NCBI GenBank assembly: GCA_964634595.1
Contig: CAZWKU010000002.1
Location: 4,070-68,069, forward strand
Reading direction: 5' to 3'
DNA length: 64,000 nt
DNA from: an uncultured Candidatus Saccharibacteria bacterium
GTDB taxonomy: Bacteria > Patescibacteriota > Minisyncoccia > Phycocordibacterales > Phycocordibacteraceae
Shown: positions 2,406-58,883 of the stretch, piece by piece
How positions within the stretch are numbered: the first letter of the stretch is position 1
How the letters are laid out: each line of letters begins with the position of its first letter
The notes under the pieces: model-generated
Seen by the model: only the letters and a program-made list of their open reading frames with translations
What the model was told of the DNA's origin: nothing
Database searches by the model: none
Position numbers and translations under genes: made by a program

Positions 2406-2434
2406 TAATCGTCTTTTCCTTACCCCATTTTGCA

Positions 2435-2453
2435 CTATCCACTATCTCAAACG
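2435..2453. promoter_or_regulatory. Operator-like motif copy 1 (CTATCCACTATCTCAAACG), 35 bp upstream of membrane-protein gene
   Basis: 26-bp block TTGCACTATCCACTATCTnnAACGAC nearly identical to the copy at 3031-3056. Inverted partner arm degenerate here. Confidence 0.4.
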
Positions 2454-2488
2454 ACAGCATTCTTTCTAGGTCGTGGTAAAATAAACTT

Positions 2489-2905
2489 ATGTGGCTACCG
2501 ATGAAATTTGGAGGGATTCTGCTTGTCGTCAATATAATTATCGGTCTGTTAGGTACGCGAATACCACTCATCAACGATGATCTACTTTTCCTCACATTCC
2601 CTACGGTATGGGCTTTCTTTGGTGGCGTTACCATTAGCTCAGTATTACTGTTCGTAATTGCTACTCTCATTCTATATTTCATCGCTGGATTAATTCTAGC
2701 GATCATAAGTAAAGTTTTAGAGAAATTCTTGCCATCCACAGCAGCTATGGTTATTGCCTTGCTCCTGCCGGTTCTACTTGTTGGATGGTATGGATACTCT
2801 GAATACCAAAAGACAAAGGCGTATCTCGAACAAAACACTTCTCAAGAGGCCCAACAGCAGCTTCCCGATGGAGTAGCCCCGATCATCATCCAGGAGTCCA
2901 ATTGA
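2489..2905 (+). CDS. Integral membrane protein, hypothetical (3-4 TM helices), AT-richer than neighbours
   Basis: ORF with hydrophobic helices, preceded by operator-like motif. Confidence 0.5.
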   Translation: MWLPMKFGGILLVVNIIIGLLGTRIPLINDDLLFLTFPTVWAFFGGVTISSVLLFVIATLILYFIAGLILAIISKVLEKFLPSTAAMVIALLLPVLLVGWYGYSEYQKTKAYLEQNTSQEAQQQLPDGVAPIIIQESN

Positions 2906-3038
2906 CTTTGCTTCACTAGGTGCAGTGCTTTGTGTAAGTTTGTATGAAGCAGGGAAAGATGATTGAGTCTTATATCCGTCTTTATTTTCCCTTACTCCAA
3001 GTTTTCTTGGAAGGTATCACCGATCTCCAGTTCTTGCA

Positions 3039-3086
3039 CTATCCACTATCTACAACGACCGTACACGGTAGTGGATGATAGGATAG
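3039..3086. promoter_or_regulatory. Operator-like palindrome copy 2 (CTATCCACTA-N19-TAGTGGATgATAG) immediately upstream of the PaaX-like gene
   Basis: Inverted repeat ending 5 bp before ATG 3091. Candidate autoregulatory site. Confidence 0.45.
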
Positions 3087-3090
3087 GAGC

Positions 3091-3666
3091 ATGGGGAAGC
3101 AAGAAGAATTCGTACGCGAACGAGCCAAGCGTAACGCACTCAAAAACGCTCTTCTTCTTACACTCGCGGTCACGGGTCTGGTACTCATGGGAGTTCGACT
3201 CCCACCAAAAATCTTTACCTTCGGATTCTGGAGAGACGATGCTCGATTTCGATACCGTACCCGCACAACACTTTCAAGATTGGTACGGCAGGGGTTAGTA
3301 ACTTTTGTTGAAGATGGGGACAAAAGATATGCCAGACTCACTAAGAGAGGTGAAGCCTATATTGTATTTGAAAAGGCGAAACTAGAGCTACAAAAGAAAC
3401 GCAAGTGGGATAAGCGGTGGCGTATGGTGATATTTGATGTTCCAGAGCGTAGAAAGCAGATGCGTAATCGCTTACGCAGAGACATGGTGGAACTCGGCTT
3501 TCTTCGTCTGCAAGACAGCGTGTGGGTGCACCCGTATGATTGTGAAGATCTTATGGCACTGGTGAAAACACGCTGTGGCGTTGGCGCGCACGCACTCTAC
3601 GTCATTGCTGAAACGATAGAGCACGACCGCTCACTACGAGAGCATTTTCGCCTACCGATGACATAA
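3091..3666 (+). CDS. PaaX-like transcriptional regulator (N-terminal TM helix, winged helix, PaaX_C/Cas2-fold C-terminal domain)
   Basis: wHTH-like TLSRLVRQGLVTFVEDGDKRYARLTKRGEAY; C-terminal RWRMVIFDVPERRKQMRNRLRRDMVELGFLRLQDSVWVHP. Confidence 0.55.
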   Translation: MGKQEEFVRERAKRNALKNALLLTLAVTGLVLMGVRLPPKIFTFGFWRDDARFRYRTRTTLSRLVRQGLVTFVEDGDKRYARLTKRGEAYIVFEKAKLELQKKRKWDKRWRMVIFDVPERRKQMRNRLRRDMVELGFLRLQDSVWVHPYDCEDLMALVKTRCGVGAHALYVIAETIEHDRSLREHFRLPMT

Positions 3667-3672
3667 CCACAG

Positions 3673-3712
3673 CTATCCACTATCTCAAACGGTCGCACAA
3701 ATTAGTGGATAC
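3673..3712. promoter_or_regulatory. Operator-like palindrome copy 3 (CTATCCACTATCTCAAACG-N12-TAGTGGATA)
   Basis: Same half-sites as copy 2, located just after the PaaX-like stop. Confidence 0.4.
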
Positions 3713-3824
3713 GTCGGGTTTGTGATTTGGGATGGTGTTCCTGAGCCACTGAATCATTACGGCGATTTTGACGTAAATTATTTCGTGATATGATATCTTT
3801 TCGGGTTACAAATGGAGGATTGAA

Positions 3825-4112
3825 ATGCGCCGTAGTTTGTTCTGGAGCTCTGTTGTTGTCTGTGCAATCCCAACTGTAGCAGTAGCTGATATTGTGAAGG
3901 GTTTAACGTACCGTATTGGTTTGGGAAGCCAGCTGACCACCAAGACGAGATATCTTCTCCCCAAACCTATTGCTCCCGTTTTCGGAGATTGGATTGAGGC
4001 GATCATATGCAAAGCCAACACAAACTCTTTTATCTTCCGTGTGGTTCGGCACTCTGAGGCCAGATTTAGGTTTCTCCCGTCAACTTTTGAGTCGGGAAAG
4101 GAGACTCAATGA
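3825..4112 (+). CDS. Small hypothetical protein with N-terminal signal-peptide-like segment
   Basis: GGAGG 7 nt upstream of ATG; hydrophobic N-terminus; followed by terminator. Confidence 0.35.
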   Translation: MRRSLFWSSVVVCAIPTVAVADIVKGLTYRIGLGSQLTTKTRYLLPKPIAPVFGDWIEAIICKANTNSFIFRVVRHSEARFRFLPSTFESGKETQ

Positions 4113-4212
4113 CCCTTGTTGACGGTAATGGTGTCACATACAAAATCACAGGTGATAAGTTCTATTCTGGTTGTGGGCTTGATGTAATAGTAGAATGATC
4201 TGTCTCCCGCTA

Positions 4213-4249
4213 GACGCCACAAGATAAAACTTGCGGCGTCGCTTTTTTC
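4213..4249 (+). terminator. Rho-independent terminator (GACGCCACAAG...CTTGCGGCGTC then TTTTTT)
   Basis: GC stem-loop plus T-run seen in sequence. Confidence 0.45.
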
Positions 4250-4282
4250 AGAGAGACGAATTCAACTGCTTACGCAGACTTC

Positions 4283-6232
4283 TCAGTTCTGTACCAGTGC
4301 AAAGTCAAGTTCTTTTTCGGGGATGCGGGCGGCGATTAACTTTACGCGGATGGGGTCGCCAAGTTGGTACGAGGTTTTGGTGCGACGGCCGATAAGGCGG
4401 TAGTGTTTCTCGTCGTATTCAAAATAATCGTCGCCAATGCCAGCGATGCGAATCATGCCGTCGGCATGCGTCTCGGCGAGCTCTACGTAGAGCCCGCGTT
4501 CGTTAACGCCTGAAATAACCGCATCAAACTCCTCACCTATCCTGCCAGAGAGAAATTCGACCTGCTTCATTTTTACCGAGTCTCGCTCTGCTTCAGCTGC
4601 GCCCACCTCGCGTTCTGAGGCGTGTATTGCGAGTGCTTCGAACTCCTGCATCTCCTGCTCAGTTATCGGGGTCCCGCCCGCATGTGCTTTTACGAGGCGG
4701 TGGATTACGACGTCAGGGTAGCGACGGATAGGAGAGGTGAAGGTGGTATAAAAATCAAACGCGAGCCCAAAGTGACCGATATTTTTTGTTGTGTAGACGG
4801 CCTTTGCCATTGAGCGAAGCGCCGCTGTTTTTATTAGGTACTCTTCAGGTTTGCCCTTGGTTGCGGCCATGAGGCGGTTAAGCTCTGCACCGGTAACTCG
4901 CCCGGCATGCGTTTTGAGTTCGTAGCCGAGGACGCGCAAAAACTGGGCAAGATTCTCGATGCGGTCGGCATCTGGCGCATCATGGACACGATATAGCGAT
5001 GCAAAATGCGGCCCCCCGTTATTGGTGAGCTTTGCCAGGTGTTCGGCAACCGATTGGTTTGCGAGGAGCATGAAGTCTTCAATCAAGAGGTTGGTGTCCC
5101 TACGCTCTCTGAGGTGCACCGCGATCGGCTTACCCTCGGCATTGAGCTCGACTTTCACTTCGACCGTGTCAAACTCGATTGTCCCCTTGGCGACGCGCCG
5201 TACGCGCATCTTTTGTGCCAGTGTGCGTAGTATCGCAAGCTCTTCGTGCATAGTGCCGGTACCGGCATCGAGCACTCCCTGCGCCTCTTCGTAGGTAAAA
5301 CGTTTGGCCGAGTGGATGATGGTTTCGCCAAACCATGTACGGAGCACACGACCTTCGATATCGAGGGTGAACACAGCCGATACTGAGAGACGGTCTTCAT
5401 TAGGCACCAGCGAACAGAGATTGTTTGAGAGCACTTCGGGGAGCATGGGGATGGTGCGGTCGACAAGGTAGACCGAAGTTGCGCGCTCACGGCCCTCGCG
5501 ATCAAAAGCTGTCCCCGGTTGTACGAAAAAAGAGACATCGGCAATGTGCACACCTACCTCAATGTTCCCATCTTCGAGTTTTTGTACCGAGAGTGCGTCG
5601 TCAAAGTCTTTTGCGTCAAAGGGGTCGATGGTGCAGGTGGGTACTTTTCTAAAATCACGTCGTGTACCGCGTACTGTTTCTTGTTGAATCATCCTCTTGC
5701 CATCTATCTCGAGTTTCTCAGCTTCGCTTGTTACCTCGGGCGGGAAGGTGGGGCTAAAGCCCTGTCCGAGCGCGAGAGCGCGCATTTCGGTCTCGTGTAC
5801 CCCTGCGGGGCCGATAACTTCTTCAATGGTACCCAGCGGGTACTCTTTATCGGGGGCCCATGCACCGAGCCGTGCGAGTACTTTGTACCCAAGCGGAGCC
5901 TCGCCTCGGTCGAGGATCACCAAGGGCACGTACATCTTTTTATAATCGGGAGTGAGAAGCGTGAGGCCGTCGGCTTCAATAAGAGTCCCGACAAAGGTCT
6001 CGCGGGCGCGTGAGATTACTTCAACGACCTTGCCCGCCTCGCGTGGGGGCATCTTACCCGTAGGGTCGCGATAGAGTCCTTCCGGGGCTACCTTAACTAT
6101 ATCGCCGTGGAGGGCGTGCCCGGCCCACTCGGCAGGTATCAGGAGATCCTCACTTTCAGTATCGACACTGAAAAATCCCACGCCCTTACGGGTCATGGTA
6201 ATAGGTCCCTCGTATACCCTTGCTTCAGCCAT
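4283..6232 (-). CDS. rnr: Ribonuclease R / exoribonuclease II family (VacB)
   Basis: 649 aa, RNB catalytic domain motifs, C-terminal S1-like region. Confidence 0.85.
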   Translation of the reverse strand: MAEARVYEGPITMTRKGVGFFSVDTESEDLLIPAEWAGHALHGDIVKVAPEGLYRDPTGKMPPREAGKVVEVISRARETFVGTLIEADGLTLLTPDYKKMYVPLVILDRGEAPLGYKVLARLGAWAPDKEYPLGTIEEVIGPAGVHETEMRALALGQGFSPTFPPEVTSEAEKLEIDGKRMIQQETVRGTRRDFRKVPTCTIDPFDAKDFDDALSVQKLEDGNIEVGVHIADVSFFVQPGTAFDREGRERATSVYLVDRTIPMLPEVLSNNLCSLVPNEDRLSVSAVFTLDIEGRVLRTWFGETIIHSAKRFTYEEAQGVLDAGTGTMHEELAILRTLAQKMRVRRVAKGTIEFDTVEVKVELNAEGKPIAVHLRERRDTNLLIEDFMLLANQSVAEHLAKLTNNGGPHFASLYRVHDAPDADRIENLAQFLRVLGYELKTHAGRVTGAELNRLMAATKGKPEEYLIKTAALRSMAKAVYTTKNIGHFGLAFDFYTTFTSPIRRYPDVVIHRLVKAHAGGTPITEQEMQEFEALAIHASEREVGAAEAERDSVKMKQVEFLSGRIGEEFDAVISGVNERGLYVELAETHADGMIRIAGIGDDYFEYDEKHYRLIGRRTKTSYQLGDPIRVKLIAARIPEKELDFALVQN

Positions 6233-50583: not shown

Positions 50584-51315
50584 AATAACGTTGCATAATA
50601 TATTAATGCCCCGTCTTGCTCGCGTTGATGTCGGAAACGAAATATATCATGTCATTAATCGCGCGAATGGTCGCCTCAAGATCTTTGAATCATCACAGGA
50701 TTATCAACTCTTCGAACAGCTTCTTCTTGATGCTCAAGAACTAACCGACATGCGTATTCTCGCCTATGTCATTATGCCAAACCACTGGCACTTGTTGTTG
50801 TGGCCTATGCATGATGGCGATCTCGCACAATTCATGCATCGTCTCTCTAACACCCACACCAGGCGTATGCATACTGCTACCGGCACTATTGGGAATGGGC
50901 ACTTATACCAAGGTCGATACAAATCTTTTCTGGTTGATTCAAACAACTACCTTCTTACGATTATCAAATACATTGAACGCAATCCAGTGCGTGCCAGACT
51001 CTCCAATGCATGTGAAGAATGGCAATGGGGAAGTGCTTGGAGGCGGTCGCAGGGAACCTCAAAGCAAAAGAAACTTATACACCCCTCACCTGAACCGCTA
51101 CCACACCCGTACCTTAAGTGGATAAATACCGCCGAAAAGCCCAATGACCTCTCCATCATACGCGCCTCCGTTAACAAGAACATTCCTTTTGGCAGAGATT
51201 CGTGGGTTGACACAATGATATCCACCTATCACCTAGAGACAACGAAGCGTGGAGTGGGGCGGCCCAGAAAGAATCAGAACACACATTCATCAAAAGAATC
51301 GTGACTGTCCCCATT
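50558..51315 (+). mobile_element. RAYT/IS200-like (HuH Y1 transposase) element copy 1, 758 bp, 19-bp terminal inverted repeats AATGGGGACAGTCACGATT
   Basis: TIRs at 50558-50576 and 51297-51315; near-identical copy at 57578-58336. Confidence 0.75.
50591..51304 (+). CDS. REP-associated tyrosine transposase-like HuH (Y1) transposase
   Basis: HuH motif NHWHLLLW, catalytic Tyr region YQGRYKS, YIERNPVRARL. Confidence 0.8.
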   Translation: MHNILMPRLARVDVGNEIYHVINRANGRLKIFESSQDYQLFEQLLLDAQELTDMRILAYVIMPNHWHLLLWPMHDGDLAQFMHRLSNTHTRRMHTATGTIGNGHLYQGRYKSFLVDSNNYLLTIIKYIERNPVRARLSNACEEWQWGSAWRRSQGTSKQKKLIHPSPEPLPHPYLKWINTAEKPNDLSIIRASVNKNIPFGRDSWVDTMISTYHLETTKRGVGRPRKNQNTHSSKES

Positions 51316-53942: not shown

Positions 53943-54305
53943 CGTGTTGTATCAGAGACTCGTTCAGTCTCCGCCCCCGCCGCCCCCTCCGGAGTCGCTG
54001 CCGCCCGAATCGTAGCTACCGGAGTCGCTCGGGGAACTGGGCTCATTGTGGTGAGAGCCACGTTCGTGCGAACCGCTGTGCGAAGGTTCGTTGCTCGAAA
54101 GAAGCTGCATCAGAATCATAGTGTTAAGAATACTGCCGTCATCGGAGCAATAGCTTCCGTTCGACTGTTGCACGTATGTACGACCCTGATGGACGACCTT
54201 TTGGGGTCGACTTTTTCTATTTCGATTCACAGAACACCTCTCTGTTTATGGGTGATTACCCCTGAATGAACAGGACGGCAGTATCTTAGCACGCCATACA
54301 CATAT

Positions 54306-54399: not shown

Positions 54400-54930
54400 T
54401 TAATTATTCATGTAGTGCTCGAAATGAATGGGTCGCACCAAAGCGCACTGGAGGGCTTGCACCAAGAACTCTTCGCGCTTCAGCTTCCCGCCTGAGAGAT
54501 AGTGCATAGGGTCTTTCTCTCCGCCATAGCCGCGCTTTTTGATGATTTCGCCGAGCTCGCTCTTTTCTGCGAACGTCTGTTCGGCGATGTCCCGAGGAAT
54601 CGGAAACTCTGCCCCGAAGGCAACCGAACGGCCGCCGTTTGAGCCGAGCACTACGATGCACGCTTGATCAAACCACAGGCCGTTGCGCTGGACCAGGCCG
54701 CTCTCAATGCCGATGGCAGCACCAGCATTCTCGACGGCGTTCCAGGCTGCTTGGGCACGATTGCTTGCACCAAGCTCCATTTCTTCAACGCCAACGGGCT
54801 GGATGCTGACACCCGACTCGGATTTGTGGGCGATAATCTCGAAAGGGTATGTCATCAAACTCTTGCACACGCTCTCTACCGCACGAAGCTTCAGAGCGCT
54901 TTCGGTTCCGACAGCAATTCTCATGGTCAT
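54400..54930 (-). CDS. Non-canonical purine NTP phosphatase (YjjX/inosine-xanthosine triphosphatase family)
   Basis: MRIAVGTESALKLRAV N-terminus typical of YjjX. Start set at internal ATG. Confidence 0.65.
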   Translation of the reverse strand: MTMRIAVGTESALKLRAVESVCKSLMTYPFEIIAHKSESGVSIQPVGVEEMELGASNRAQAAWNAVENAGAAIGIESGLVQRNGLWFDQACIVVLGSNGGRSVAFGAEFPIPRDIAEQTFAEKSELGEIIKKRGYGGEKDPMHYLSGGKLKREEFLVQALQCALVRPIHFEHYMNN

Positions 54931-57577: not shown

Positions 57578-58336
57578 AATGGGGACAGTCACGATTTAAA
57601 TCAAAATAACGTTGCATAATATATTAATGCCCCGTCTTGCTCGCGTCGATGTCGGAAACGAAATATACCATGTCATTAATCGCGCGAATGGTCGCCTCAA
57701 AATCTTTGACTCGTCACAGGACTATCAGCTCTTCGAACAACTTCTTCTTGAGGCTCAAGAACTCACTGACATGCGTATTCTCGCCTATGTCATTATGCCA
57801 AATCACTGGCACTTGTTGTTGTGGCCTATGAATGATGGCGATCTCGCACAATTCATGCATCGTCTCTCTAACACCCACACCAGGCGTATGCATACTGCTA
57901 CCGGCACTATTGGGAATGGGCACTTATACCAAGGTCGATACAAATCTTTTCTGGTTGATTCAAACAACTACCTTCTTACGATTATCAAATACATTGAACG
58001 CAATCCAGTGCGTGCCAGACTCTCCAATGCATGTGAAGAATGGCAATGGGGAAGTGCTTGGAGGCGGTCGCAGGGAACCTCAAAGCAAAAGAAACTTATA
58101 CACCCCTCACCTGAACCGCTACCACACCCGTACCTTAAGTGGATAAATACCGCCGAAAAGCCCAATGACCTCTCCATCATACGCGCCTCCGTTAACAAGA
58201 ACATTCCTTTTGGCAGAGATTCGTGGGTTGACACAATGATATCCACCTATCACCTAGAGACAACGAAGCGTGGAGTCGGGCGGCCAAGAAAGAATCAGAA
58301 CACACATTCATCGAAAGAATCGTGACTGTCCCCATT
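57578..58336 (+). mobile_element. RAYT/IS200-like element copy 2 (759 bp) with 19-bp TIRs, tandem-duplicated left-end stub upstream (57549-57577)
   Basis: TIRs 57578-57596 and 58318-58336; ~99% identical to copy 1. Confidence 0.75.
57612..58325 (+). CDS. REP-associated tyrosine transposase-like HuH (Y1) transposase, copy 2
   Basis: 3 aa differences from copy 1 (E33D, D47E, H75N). Confidence 0.8.
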   Translation: MHNILMPRLARVDVGNEIYHVINRANGRLKIFDSSQDYQLFEQLLLEAQELTDMRILAYVIMPNHWHLLLWPMNDGDLAQFMHRLSNTHTRRMHTATGTIGNGHLYQGRYKSFLVDSNNYLLTIIKYIERNPVRARLSNACEEWQWGSAWRRSQGTSKQKKLIHPSPEPLPHPYLKWINTAEKPNDLSIIRASVNKNIPFGRDSWVDTMISTYHLETTKRGVGRPRKNQNTHSSKES

Positions 58337-58433
58337 TACTCACCTATCACCTAGAGACAACGAAGCGTGGAGTCGGGCGGCCAAGAAAGAATCAGAACAC
58401 ACATTCATCGAAAGAATCGTGACTGTCCCCATT
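58337..58433 (+). repeat. 97-bp tandem duplication of the element right end (second TIR at 58415-58433)
   Basis: 58240-58336 repeated exactly. Confidence 0.7.
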
Positions 58434-58883
58434 TACTTCATGCAGGAGCTTTTCCACTTCGTCGTTGGTGATTTTGTTCTTGGTGGCGAGTGCTTGCATT
58501 ATCTTGTCCCGCTTCTTGCGTTTGCGATCTTGGATTGCGACGCGGGCTTTGGTGAGCAAGTCGCGGATAGAGTGAGTTTGGGCGGTTGGTACAGGCACCG
58601 TCAAGGACGGCGGCAGGATCGGCTCAGCCTCAGGAGGCAACGGCTCATTTGGCGGTATTTGAGCCGTTTGGGTTGTGGATTGAGCGACCTGAGTTTCTTG
58701 ACGGTCATCCGTCTTAGAAACTGGAAGTGGTCCTTGTGACCCCGTTGCGGGTGTTTGAGGTGCTTCTGTGGGCGCGGGAGGAGTTTCAGGAGGCGTAACT
58801 GGCTCTGCGACAAGAGCGGGAGCTTCAACGGCAGGGCTCGGCGATTCTGGTGCTGGTTGCGGGGTGCTCTCTTCTGGGGGCAT
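58392..58883 (-). CDS. Proline-rich hypothetical protein whose last 14 codons and stop lie in the duplicated transposon end
   Basis: PxxP-rich N-terminus. C-terminal residues NGDSHDSFDECVF are the antisense of the IS right end. Confidence 0.35.
   Translation of the reverse strand: MPPEESTPQPAPESPSPAVEAPALVAEPVTPPETPPAPTEAPQTPATGSQGPLPVSKTDDRQETQVAQSTTQTAQIPPNEPLPPEAEPILPPSLTVPVPTAQTHSIRDLLTKARVAIQDRKRKKRDKIMQALATKNKITNDEVEKLLHEVNGDSHDSFDECVF

Follow-up and report, generated by a model that had tools for sequence, protein, structure and literature searches.

A short PaaX-like protein of Patescibacteria and its cognate palindromes: a putative self-contained regulatory module

The closest described relatives of the system considered here are the PaaX proteins of Escherichia coli and Pseudomonas, which have operators at the promoters Pa, Pz and Px. 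The PaaX operator, TGATTC-N27-GAATCA, is made up of two short arms and spans about 39 base pairs (bp) overall, and PaaX represses its own promoter Px by steric hindrance (PMC9493321). Here, we describe a locus in a stretch of 64,000 nucleotides (nt) from an uncultured Candidatus Saccharibacteria bacterium (phylum Patescibacteriota; GenBank assembly GCA_964634595.1, contig CAZWKU010000002.1, positions 4,070 to 68,069 of the forward strand), in which a gene for a short PaaX-like protein of 191 amino acids (3091..3666, plus strand) is accompanied by three copies of an operator-like motif; the whole stretch is referred to as the window and all positions are counted from its first letter. We read the locus as a self-contained regulatory module, in which a two-domain PaaX-like protein specific to Patescibacteria would repress its own gene through wide-spaced putative operators and would act on one local target in addition, and we put the probability of this reading at roughly 0.6. 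The narrower proposal that the palindromes are putative operators of the adjacent regulator, serving a small local regulon, is strongly supported by the comparison of sites across the protein family.

Like PaaX, the window protein has a PaaX_M domain, which follows a predicted N-terminal winged helix, and the solved structure of E. coli PaaX (8a39) is its best structural match. Its predicted sites also resemble the PaaX operators in having short inverted arms, a long spacer and an overlap with the promoter, with an 8-N20-8 layout (36 bp) compared to 6-N27-6 for PaaX. In contrast to PaaX, which has about 305-316 residues, the window protein lacks the PaaX_C domain, has neither paa genes in its vicinity nor an obvious ligand-binding domain, and carries a hydrophobic N-terminal helix. 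The predicted operators differ in their conserved 6-bp centre and in the presence of a second site after the stop codon, and the family as a whole is distinguished by leaderless extended -10 promoters and by several paralogues per genome.

A sequence-only reading of the window had proposed a 14-nt core at 2435, 3039 and 3673, palindromic in the second and third copies. This is borne out: the 13-mer CTATCCACTATCT is exact at all three places (2435-2447, 3039-3051 and 3673-3685, all on the plus strand), and a scan of the 64-kb window allowing up to two mismatches returned a single further match, with one mismatch, within a coding region at 54497 (0.87 expected). Copies 2 and 3 are 36-bp dyads of the form ATCCACTA-N7-CG(AC/GT)CG-N7-TAGTGGAT, at 3041..3076 and 3675..3710, respectively; no further ATCCACTA-N20-TAGTGGAT dyad is present in the window and none arose in 100 shuffles. 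The 8-bp arms are exactly 20 bp apart in both dyads, not 12-19 bp as had been proposed for the inverted arm. The 6-mers at the two dyad centres, CGACCG in copy 2 (3056-3061) and CGGTCG in copy 3 (3690-3695), are reverse complements of each other. Copy 1 (2430..2457, plus strand) consists of TTGCAC, the left arm ATCCACTA (2437-2444) and a centre-like CGACAG at the centre position (2452-2457), followed by a degenerate right arm; on the left side it shares 24 of 26 bases with copy 2, as had been noted, the common stretch being TTGCACTATCCACTATCT..AACGAC. The proposed arrangement is likewise confirmed, with copy 1 ahead of a membrane-protein gene (ATG at 2489) and copy 3 beginning 9 nt 3' of the regulator stop codon, its centre lying 26 nt past that codon. 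Copy 2, the putative autoregulatory operator, had been placed 5 bp before the gene; its right arm actually ends at 3076, 14 nt before the ATG at 3091, and the distance between copies 2 and 3 is about 634 bp.

The same layout is found throughout the regulator family, which is confined to Patescibacteria (Kaiserbacteria, Paceibacterota, Adlerbacteria, Nomurabacteria and others), has members of about 193 amino acids and comprises 1,731 clusters at 50% identity (E <1e-10). Among only the 80 best genome loci, at least 19 assemblies contain two or three paralogues, and within a genome these are only about 40-50% identical. For the comparison of sites, 79 homologous Patescibacteria loci (395 kb) were used; a family site was defined as a core CTATAG, CGGTCG, CGACCG or CGGCCG with at least 10 of 17 symmetric flank positions, and palindromes upstream of the start codon and just after the stop codon are referred to as U and D sites, respectively, so that copy 2 is the U site and copy 3 the D site of the window. 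In nearly all cases the gene of the homologue lies between two cognate palindromes of 36-46 bp, one upstream of the start and one directly after the stop codon. Of the 79 loci, 73 have a core upstream and 74 have one in the post-stop zone. Sites that also show the required flank symmetry are concentrated in the same two zones, with 51 in the upstream zone (60 nt) and 64 in the post-stop zone (115 nt), and only 8 lie anywhere else in the 395 kb. U centres form clusters at -38 to -42 and at -19 relative to the start codon, and D centres at +20 to +27 from the stop codon, which means that the left arm of the D site begins at the stop codon; the spacing between the two sites is 611-732 bp.

The two sites of a locus also match each other in sequence. 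U and D sites of the same locus are identical at a mean of 32.6 of 46 positions, compared to 19.3 between loci, and in 38 of 73 loci no D site matches the U site better than the one from the same locus. Arms thus vary between subgroups and agree within a locus, and in the window as well as in relatives of the same arm type TATCC is found at -18 to -14 from the dyad centre. A third cognate palindrome is present in four relatives (L009, L025, L042 and L073), so the three-copy layout of the window recurs. The autoregulated small regulon that had been suggested for the window therefore stands as far as the near-exclusive placement of cognate sites at the two ends of regulator genes is concerned; a role for copy 3 as operator of a gene further downstream is not supported in the window, where it has no adjacent promoter. 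A search for the motif outside its home context gave only the three local copies in the window, few sites away from the two zones in the 395 kb, and one well-matched site at a locus, L179, where no regulator was found. When metagenomes were scanned for the arms alone, more than 120 matches were obtained, which are mostly due to chance (16 specified bases). The family centre is present in 3 of 120 such matches, two of which adjoin a regulator homologue, after the stop codon in L162 and upstream in L132. The L179 site (3031-3066) has the exact arms of the window and a CGACCG centre, and lies on a high-GC contig after a gene for a 205-residue secreted protein; there is no regulator homologue within 8.5 kb, so that the site may be an orphan or may have arisen by chance.

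The position of the U site can be related to transcription through an alignment of 80 start regions, from the 80 best genome loci. In 60 of the 80, TAnnnT occupies precisely positions -12 to -7, with T favoured at -15 and G at -14, and the start reads ATGGG in 71 of 80; there is no Shine-Dalgarno enrichment across the 80 regions. As about 75% of family members have a TGnTAnnnT that ends exactly 6 nt ahead of the ATG, we infer that this pattern is the signature of extended -10 promoters on leaderless messenger RNAs in these Patescibacteria. In the window, an extended -10-like box TGATAGGAT (3076..3084, plus strand) ends 6 nt before the regulator ATG at 3091, and its first base is the last base of the copy 2 right arm. 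A second such box, TGGTAAAAT (2474..2482, plus strand), ends 6 nt before the ATG at 2489, giving the membrane-protein open reading frame (ORF) the leaderless layout typical of the family. The dyad centre lies 34.5 nt 5' of the ATG in copy 1 and 32.5 nt 5' of the ATG in copy 2, so the two window promoters carry the same motif in the same register. A scan for consensus sigma-70 promoters returned nothing at the three copies; the promoter signal came from the family alignment.

In the proposed model, the regulator would dimerise through its Cas2-fold domain, the two winged helices would recognise the outer arms (TATCCAC), which lie 14-18 bp away from the dyad axis, and the body of the dimer would cover the conserved 6-bp centre CGACCG/CGGTCG. 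As copy 2 overlaps the extended -10 box, binding to it should block RNA polymerase: protein on copy 2 would cover roughly -50 to -15 and exclude the polymerase, resulting in autorepression. Through copy 1, the orphan membrane-protein gene would come under the same control, with binding that is probably weaker. Copy 3 is the window's version of the family-wide post-stop site, and would most likely act as an auxiliary operator, either as a looping partner of copy 2 or as a roadblock that ends or insulates the transcript. In the first of these roles it would resemble the lac O1/O2 and gal OE/OI loops, where a primary operator at the promoter is combined with a second cognate site a few hundred bp downstream. 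In contrast to these loops, for which the likeness in looping is conjectural here, the second site of the family lies just past the regulator's own stop codon.

Inverted repeats at the ends of a gene could alternatively function as RNA, in the form of terminators or stabilisers at transcript 3' ends, or as DNA cruciforms, and would then not be double-stranded protein sites at all. Several features are in keeping with this: the arms of relatives can be perfect over 17-21 bp, the D site begins directly after the stop codon, and copies 2 and 3 fold better than shuffled sequences (z -2.8 and -2.6). However, stems in the window measure only 8-11 bp, their loops are large (about 14-20 nt) and a T tract is missing. 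Copy 1 does not fold (z -0.9), and relatives use ordinary terminators with a GC stem and T tract elsewhere. No terminator was predicted at any of the three copies, and an intrinsic terminator was rejected as a candidate for them because of the large loops and the missing T tract; Rfam gave no match either, in the region at E values up to 1 or in the whole window at gathering thresholds. The pattern of substitutions is also not that of a paired RNA. G:T mismatches are not favoured over A:C mismatches (38:56 in U sites and 57:58 in D sites). U and D sites show double differences at the same symmetric positions 63 times, compared to 36 expected, and only 10 of these preserve pairing, compared to about 15 by chance. 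Positions that are free in one half-site are thus free in the other, as would be expected for contact with a symmetric protein dimer, and base pairing itself is not under selection. In addition, the leaderless start, if correctly deduced, leaves the U site outside the transcript of the gene, and such sites are nearly absent from other genes in the 395 kb. On this evidence, a symmetric site bound by protein in double-stranded DNA is the better explanation, and we regard an RNA or DNA hairpin as very improbable.

A protein other than the neighbouring regulator might of course bind the arms, DnaA being an example, and the regulator family would then merely be its conserved target. The consensus DnaA box is the 9-mer TTATCCACA, for which one or two mismatches at most were accepted, and in two subgroups of relatives the arm sequence TATCCACA agrees with it at 8-9 of 9 positions; many relatives have arms of the type (C/G)TATCCACA or TTATC(C/A)ACA. 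Examples of such arms are CTTATCCACA in L035, L041 and L066 and CTATCCACA in L009, and one of the DnaA-box-like subgroups is located just downstream of gyrA. The window arm CTATCCACT, on the other hand, agrees with the box at only 7 of 9 positions, and other subgroups have the unrelated arms TACACACA, ACTTGTTTATAAA and CTCTTACTATTTTCG, yet share the same centre, the same positions and the same pairing of U with D sites. The sites moreover accompany the regulator gene at whatever genome position it occupies. The likeness of two subgroups' arms to DnaA boxes is possibly a coincidence, and we give an outside factor hardly any chance of accounting for the sites.

The protein itself consists of a hydrophobic N-terminal helix, a predicted winged helix (recognition helix at about residues 50-66, wing at 70-83) and a Cas2-fold PaaX_M domain at residues 104-179. 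The C-terminal domain had been taken for PaaX_C; profile comparison instead identifies it as PaaX_M (PF20803, E 3.5e-22, 78.7 bits compared to a cutoff of 24 bits), and gives no match to PaaX_C in a protein that ends at residue 191. The PaaX winged-helix profile PF07848 scores 14 bits (cutoff 24.8) and the full-length PaaX model TIGR02277 47.7 bits (cutoff 264.55). The comparison of PaaX_C with Cas2 profiles, suggested as a check on the assignment, settled on neither: PaaX_M is by far the best match, PaaX_C is absent and the Cas2 models stay under their cutoffs, with 24.3 bits for TIGR01573 (cutoff 24.5) and 18.7 bits for PF09827 (cutoff 23.8). PADLOC returned weak Cas2 matches only (E 4e-6). 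Because the TIGR01573 score is so narrowly under its cutoff, many homologues are named 'Cas2' in the public records of NCBI. With CRISPR Cas2 the regulator shares the ferredoxin-like beta-alpha-beta-beta-alpha-beta fold, a VxFD motif in beta1 with an invariant Asp and the weak profile matches; it differs in its fusion to a winged helix and in its far better PaaX_M score. The window has no CRISPR repeat array, and no cas1 or other cas genes are present among the called neighbour genes of the loci examined. With scores under the cutoffs and no CRISPR context, the regulator is not a Cas2, and, with neither PaaX_C nor paa genes, it also falls outside the PaaX equivalog.

An AlphaFold2 (AF2) model of the regulator, with a predicted local distance difference test score (pLDDT) of 78, has a long helix at the N-terminus, then a recognition helix plus beta wing, and a beta-alpha-beta-beta-alpha-beta domain. 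Foldseek searches with this model returned E. coli PaaX 8a39 as the top solved structure (180 aligned columns, E 4.5e-6; the N-terminal 45-57 residues have low confidence), followed by the PaaX-like structures 3l09 and 3kfw, with Cas2 structures scoring lower. The protein had also been described as membrane-anchored, which is one possibility among several. A hydrophobic 19-residue segment (residues 20-38, encoded at 3148-3204) with the mean Kyte-Doolittle value of a membrane helix (2.07) is kept family-wide. Its flanks, however, contain more lysine and arginine on the N-terminal than on the C-terminal side (5.5 compared to 3.0), and two AF2 runs disagree on whether the segment is a confident helix, residues 15-57 having a pLDDT below 50 in the second model (P0009). 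The segment may be a membrane anchor, an oligomerisation helix or helix 1 of the winged-helix domain.

Several observations weigh against the module as proposed. The right arm is missing from copy 1, no promoter adjoins copy 3, and the post-stop site, though found family-wide, can be given only putative roles. If the hydrophobic segment did cross the membrane, the DNA-binding part of the protein would, by the positive-inside rule, lie outside the cell. Divergence of the arms correlates with divergence of the winged helix (rho 0.45) no better than with that of the Cas2-fold domain (0.46). Finally, in about ten relatives the whole unit lies inside direct repeats of the 3' end of a host gene, which points to past insertion, something for which a plain regulator has no need.

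This last point bears on a further alternative, in which the palindromes would mark the ends, or serve as recombination sites, of a small cassette that is or once was mobile, and whose only gene product would bind or cut them for insertion, excision or inversion. Arms combined with an asymmetric 6-bp centre resemble core sites of the dif or lox type, and the centre has opposite orientations in the U and D sites of 11 loci and the same orientation in 35. Two cognate sites bracket the gene across the family, and an Asp at the beta1 position of Cas2 is invariant. A single gene between two similar, lineage-specific palindromes is likewise what is seen with REP-associated tyrosine transposases (RAYTs) and their repetitive extragenic palindromes (REP), and with IS200/IS605 insertion sequences. 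In contrast to these elements, the window family has no HUH or Y1 motifs, its palindromes occur two or three per locus and are not dispersed, its chromosomal context is stable and the U site is locked to the promoter. An IS200/IS605 or RAYT element was accordingly rejected as an identity for the regulator unit, which gave no Y1_Tnp match and whose motif is limited to three local copies.

Past mobility is also suggested by the flanking repeats, in which the 3' end of the upstream host gene is repeated directly on both sides of the unit in about 10 of 73 loci. In the clearest cases these repeats are 27-144 nt long and 89-100% identical. The tail of a beta-CASP ribonuclease (RNase) gene is repeated in L077 (51 nt, 100%), where the original tail has been displaced and is found downstream together with its terminator; L064 (40 nt, 90%) and L045 (about 75% over about 60 nt) have weaker RNase-tail repeats in the same arrangement, and in L162, outside the 73-locus scan, a displaced RNase tail and terminator are found past the post-stop site. 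An epimerase tail is duplicated in L020 (47 nt at 94%) and L026, L073 has a 144-nt repeat (2289-2432 and 3096-3239), and L070 (beta-CASP RNase tail) and L019 are also among the units with flanking host-gene repeats. All of these look like old insertion scars. The window unit, too, is found in a setting that would suit an acquired cassette: a low-GC island (0.40-0.49 compared to 0.55) in a variable slot between gdh and rnr, with syntenic relatives that lack the regulator unit. When positions 2406-4283 of the window are compared with L205-L209, the order smc-gdh-(variable)-rnr (minus strand)-rpsP-KH-trmD is kept in these relatives (gdh 72-75% identical), with different small genes in the slot of each genome, and the regulator island is specific to the genome of the window. 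In the same slot, L205 (6238-6283) and L206 (3811-3856) have a GC-rich, CTATAG-centred palindrome with 13 of 17 symmetric positions between two minus-strand ORFs and no regulator, which is probably a terminator.

Against present mobility, subgroups keep fixed chromosomal contexts across many genomes (after rpoD, gyrA, the beta-CASP RNase gene or yceG), identical regulator proteins are never found in two contexts, and the paralogues of one genome are as distant from each other as stated above. No relatives of the regulator were found on the viral contigs searched, and the unit contains neither a recombinase nor an HUH motif. The U site is fixed to the -10 box within 1-2 nt, a lock for which transposition has no need, and at the window unit no flanking direct repeat or gene-tail remnant was found. 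Taken together, we consider a mobile cassette doubtful. A related proposal is that a private palindrome, a leaderless gene and a matching private palindrome, with the 6-bp centre common to all, form a new kind of self-contained genetic unit, whose winged-helix/Cas2-fold protein clamps both ends of its own gene. The clamping would serve either to loop or insulate the gene, or would be the remnant of a Cas2-related integration mechanism, which would explain the duplications of 30-140 bp of host gene tail around some units; linked to this is the possibility that the conserved hydrophobic helix tethers such units to the membrane. We regard this proposal as unlikely, and retain the autorepressing module with its local target as the preferred reading.

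True IS200-like genes do occur elsewhere in the window and are unrelated to the regulator unit. Between 50553 and 61040 the start of a gene for an IS200-like, RAYT-like Y1 transposase is present three times (50553, 57574 and 60944), with an ORF at 50591-51304 matching PF01797 (E 3.5e-16); a family of 87-nt repeats is found at 54282, 57141 and 61716 and a 97-nt tandem repeat at 58244-58437.

The putative second target of the regulator is the ORF downstream of copy 1 (2489..2905, plus strand), which encodes an orphan hydrophobic protein of 138 amino acids with low GC content (134 amino acids from 2501 in the NCBI annotation); a homologue search among 5.8 billion proteins returned only the protein itself. 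Downstream of copy 3, the region 3786..4112 (plus strand) contains an ORF for 95 amino acids (3825-4112), which has its own TGATATGAT box (3786-3794) and a GGAGG (3814-3818). With its own box, about 100 nt from copy 3, this ORF is probably not under direct copy 3 control. The other called neighbours in the window are smc, gdh and rnr, and relatives are found next to rpoD, gyrA, the beta-CASP RNase gene, yceG or mnmA; paa genes are absent from both sets.

The D site lacks an adjacent promoter in the window and in most other loci. In the subgroup with TATCCACA arms, however, it directly abuts the TATAAT or TATACT box of the next gene, which codes for a PD-(D/E)XK nuclease, indicating that the sites can serve neighbouring promoters. 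The nuclease (about 285 amino acids, PF12705, motif 'LPIKHWSHSSL') begins about 35-90 nt past the D site and is the neighbour in L005, L011, L014, L029, L033, L058, L074, L075 and L084; RNase HII takes its place in L010 and L012. It has no PADLOC or NCBIfam match. This subgroup resembles the C proteins of restriction-modification systems, which are Xre-type helix-turn-helix proteins of about 80 amino acids with tandem 12-bp boxes (C-boxes): in both cases a small DNA-binding protein has a palindromic operator at its own promoter and the next gene, here for a nuclease, may be under the same control. In contrast to the C protein systems, no DNA methyltransferase was seen beside the nuclease of the subgroup, and the window has no nuclease.

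A search of the literature for PaaX together with Cas2 or operators, in Patescibacteria or the candidate phyla radiation (CPR), found no papers, and as far as the searchable literature shows, neither the bracketing of the regulator gene by two sites, nor their common 6-bp centre, nor the leaderless extended -10 design has been described. Next to nothing is known of how Patescibacteria (CPR), whose tiny genomes contain few recognisable regulators, control transcription. A large family that is routinely mislabelled Cas2 now gains a putative operator, consisting of arms and a CG(GT/AC)CG or CTATAG centre, together with a leaderless, extended -10 kind of promoter and a two-site architecture conserved among its members. 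The reason for having sites at both ends of the gene is the mechanistic question that this architecture raises, and the family offers a ready set of matched protein-site pairs for studies of specificity.

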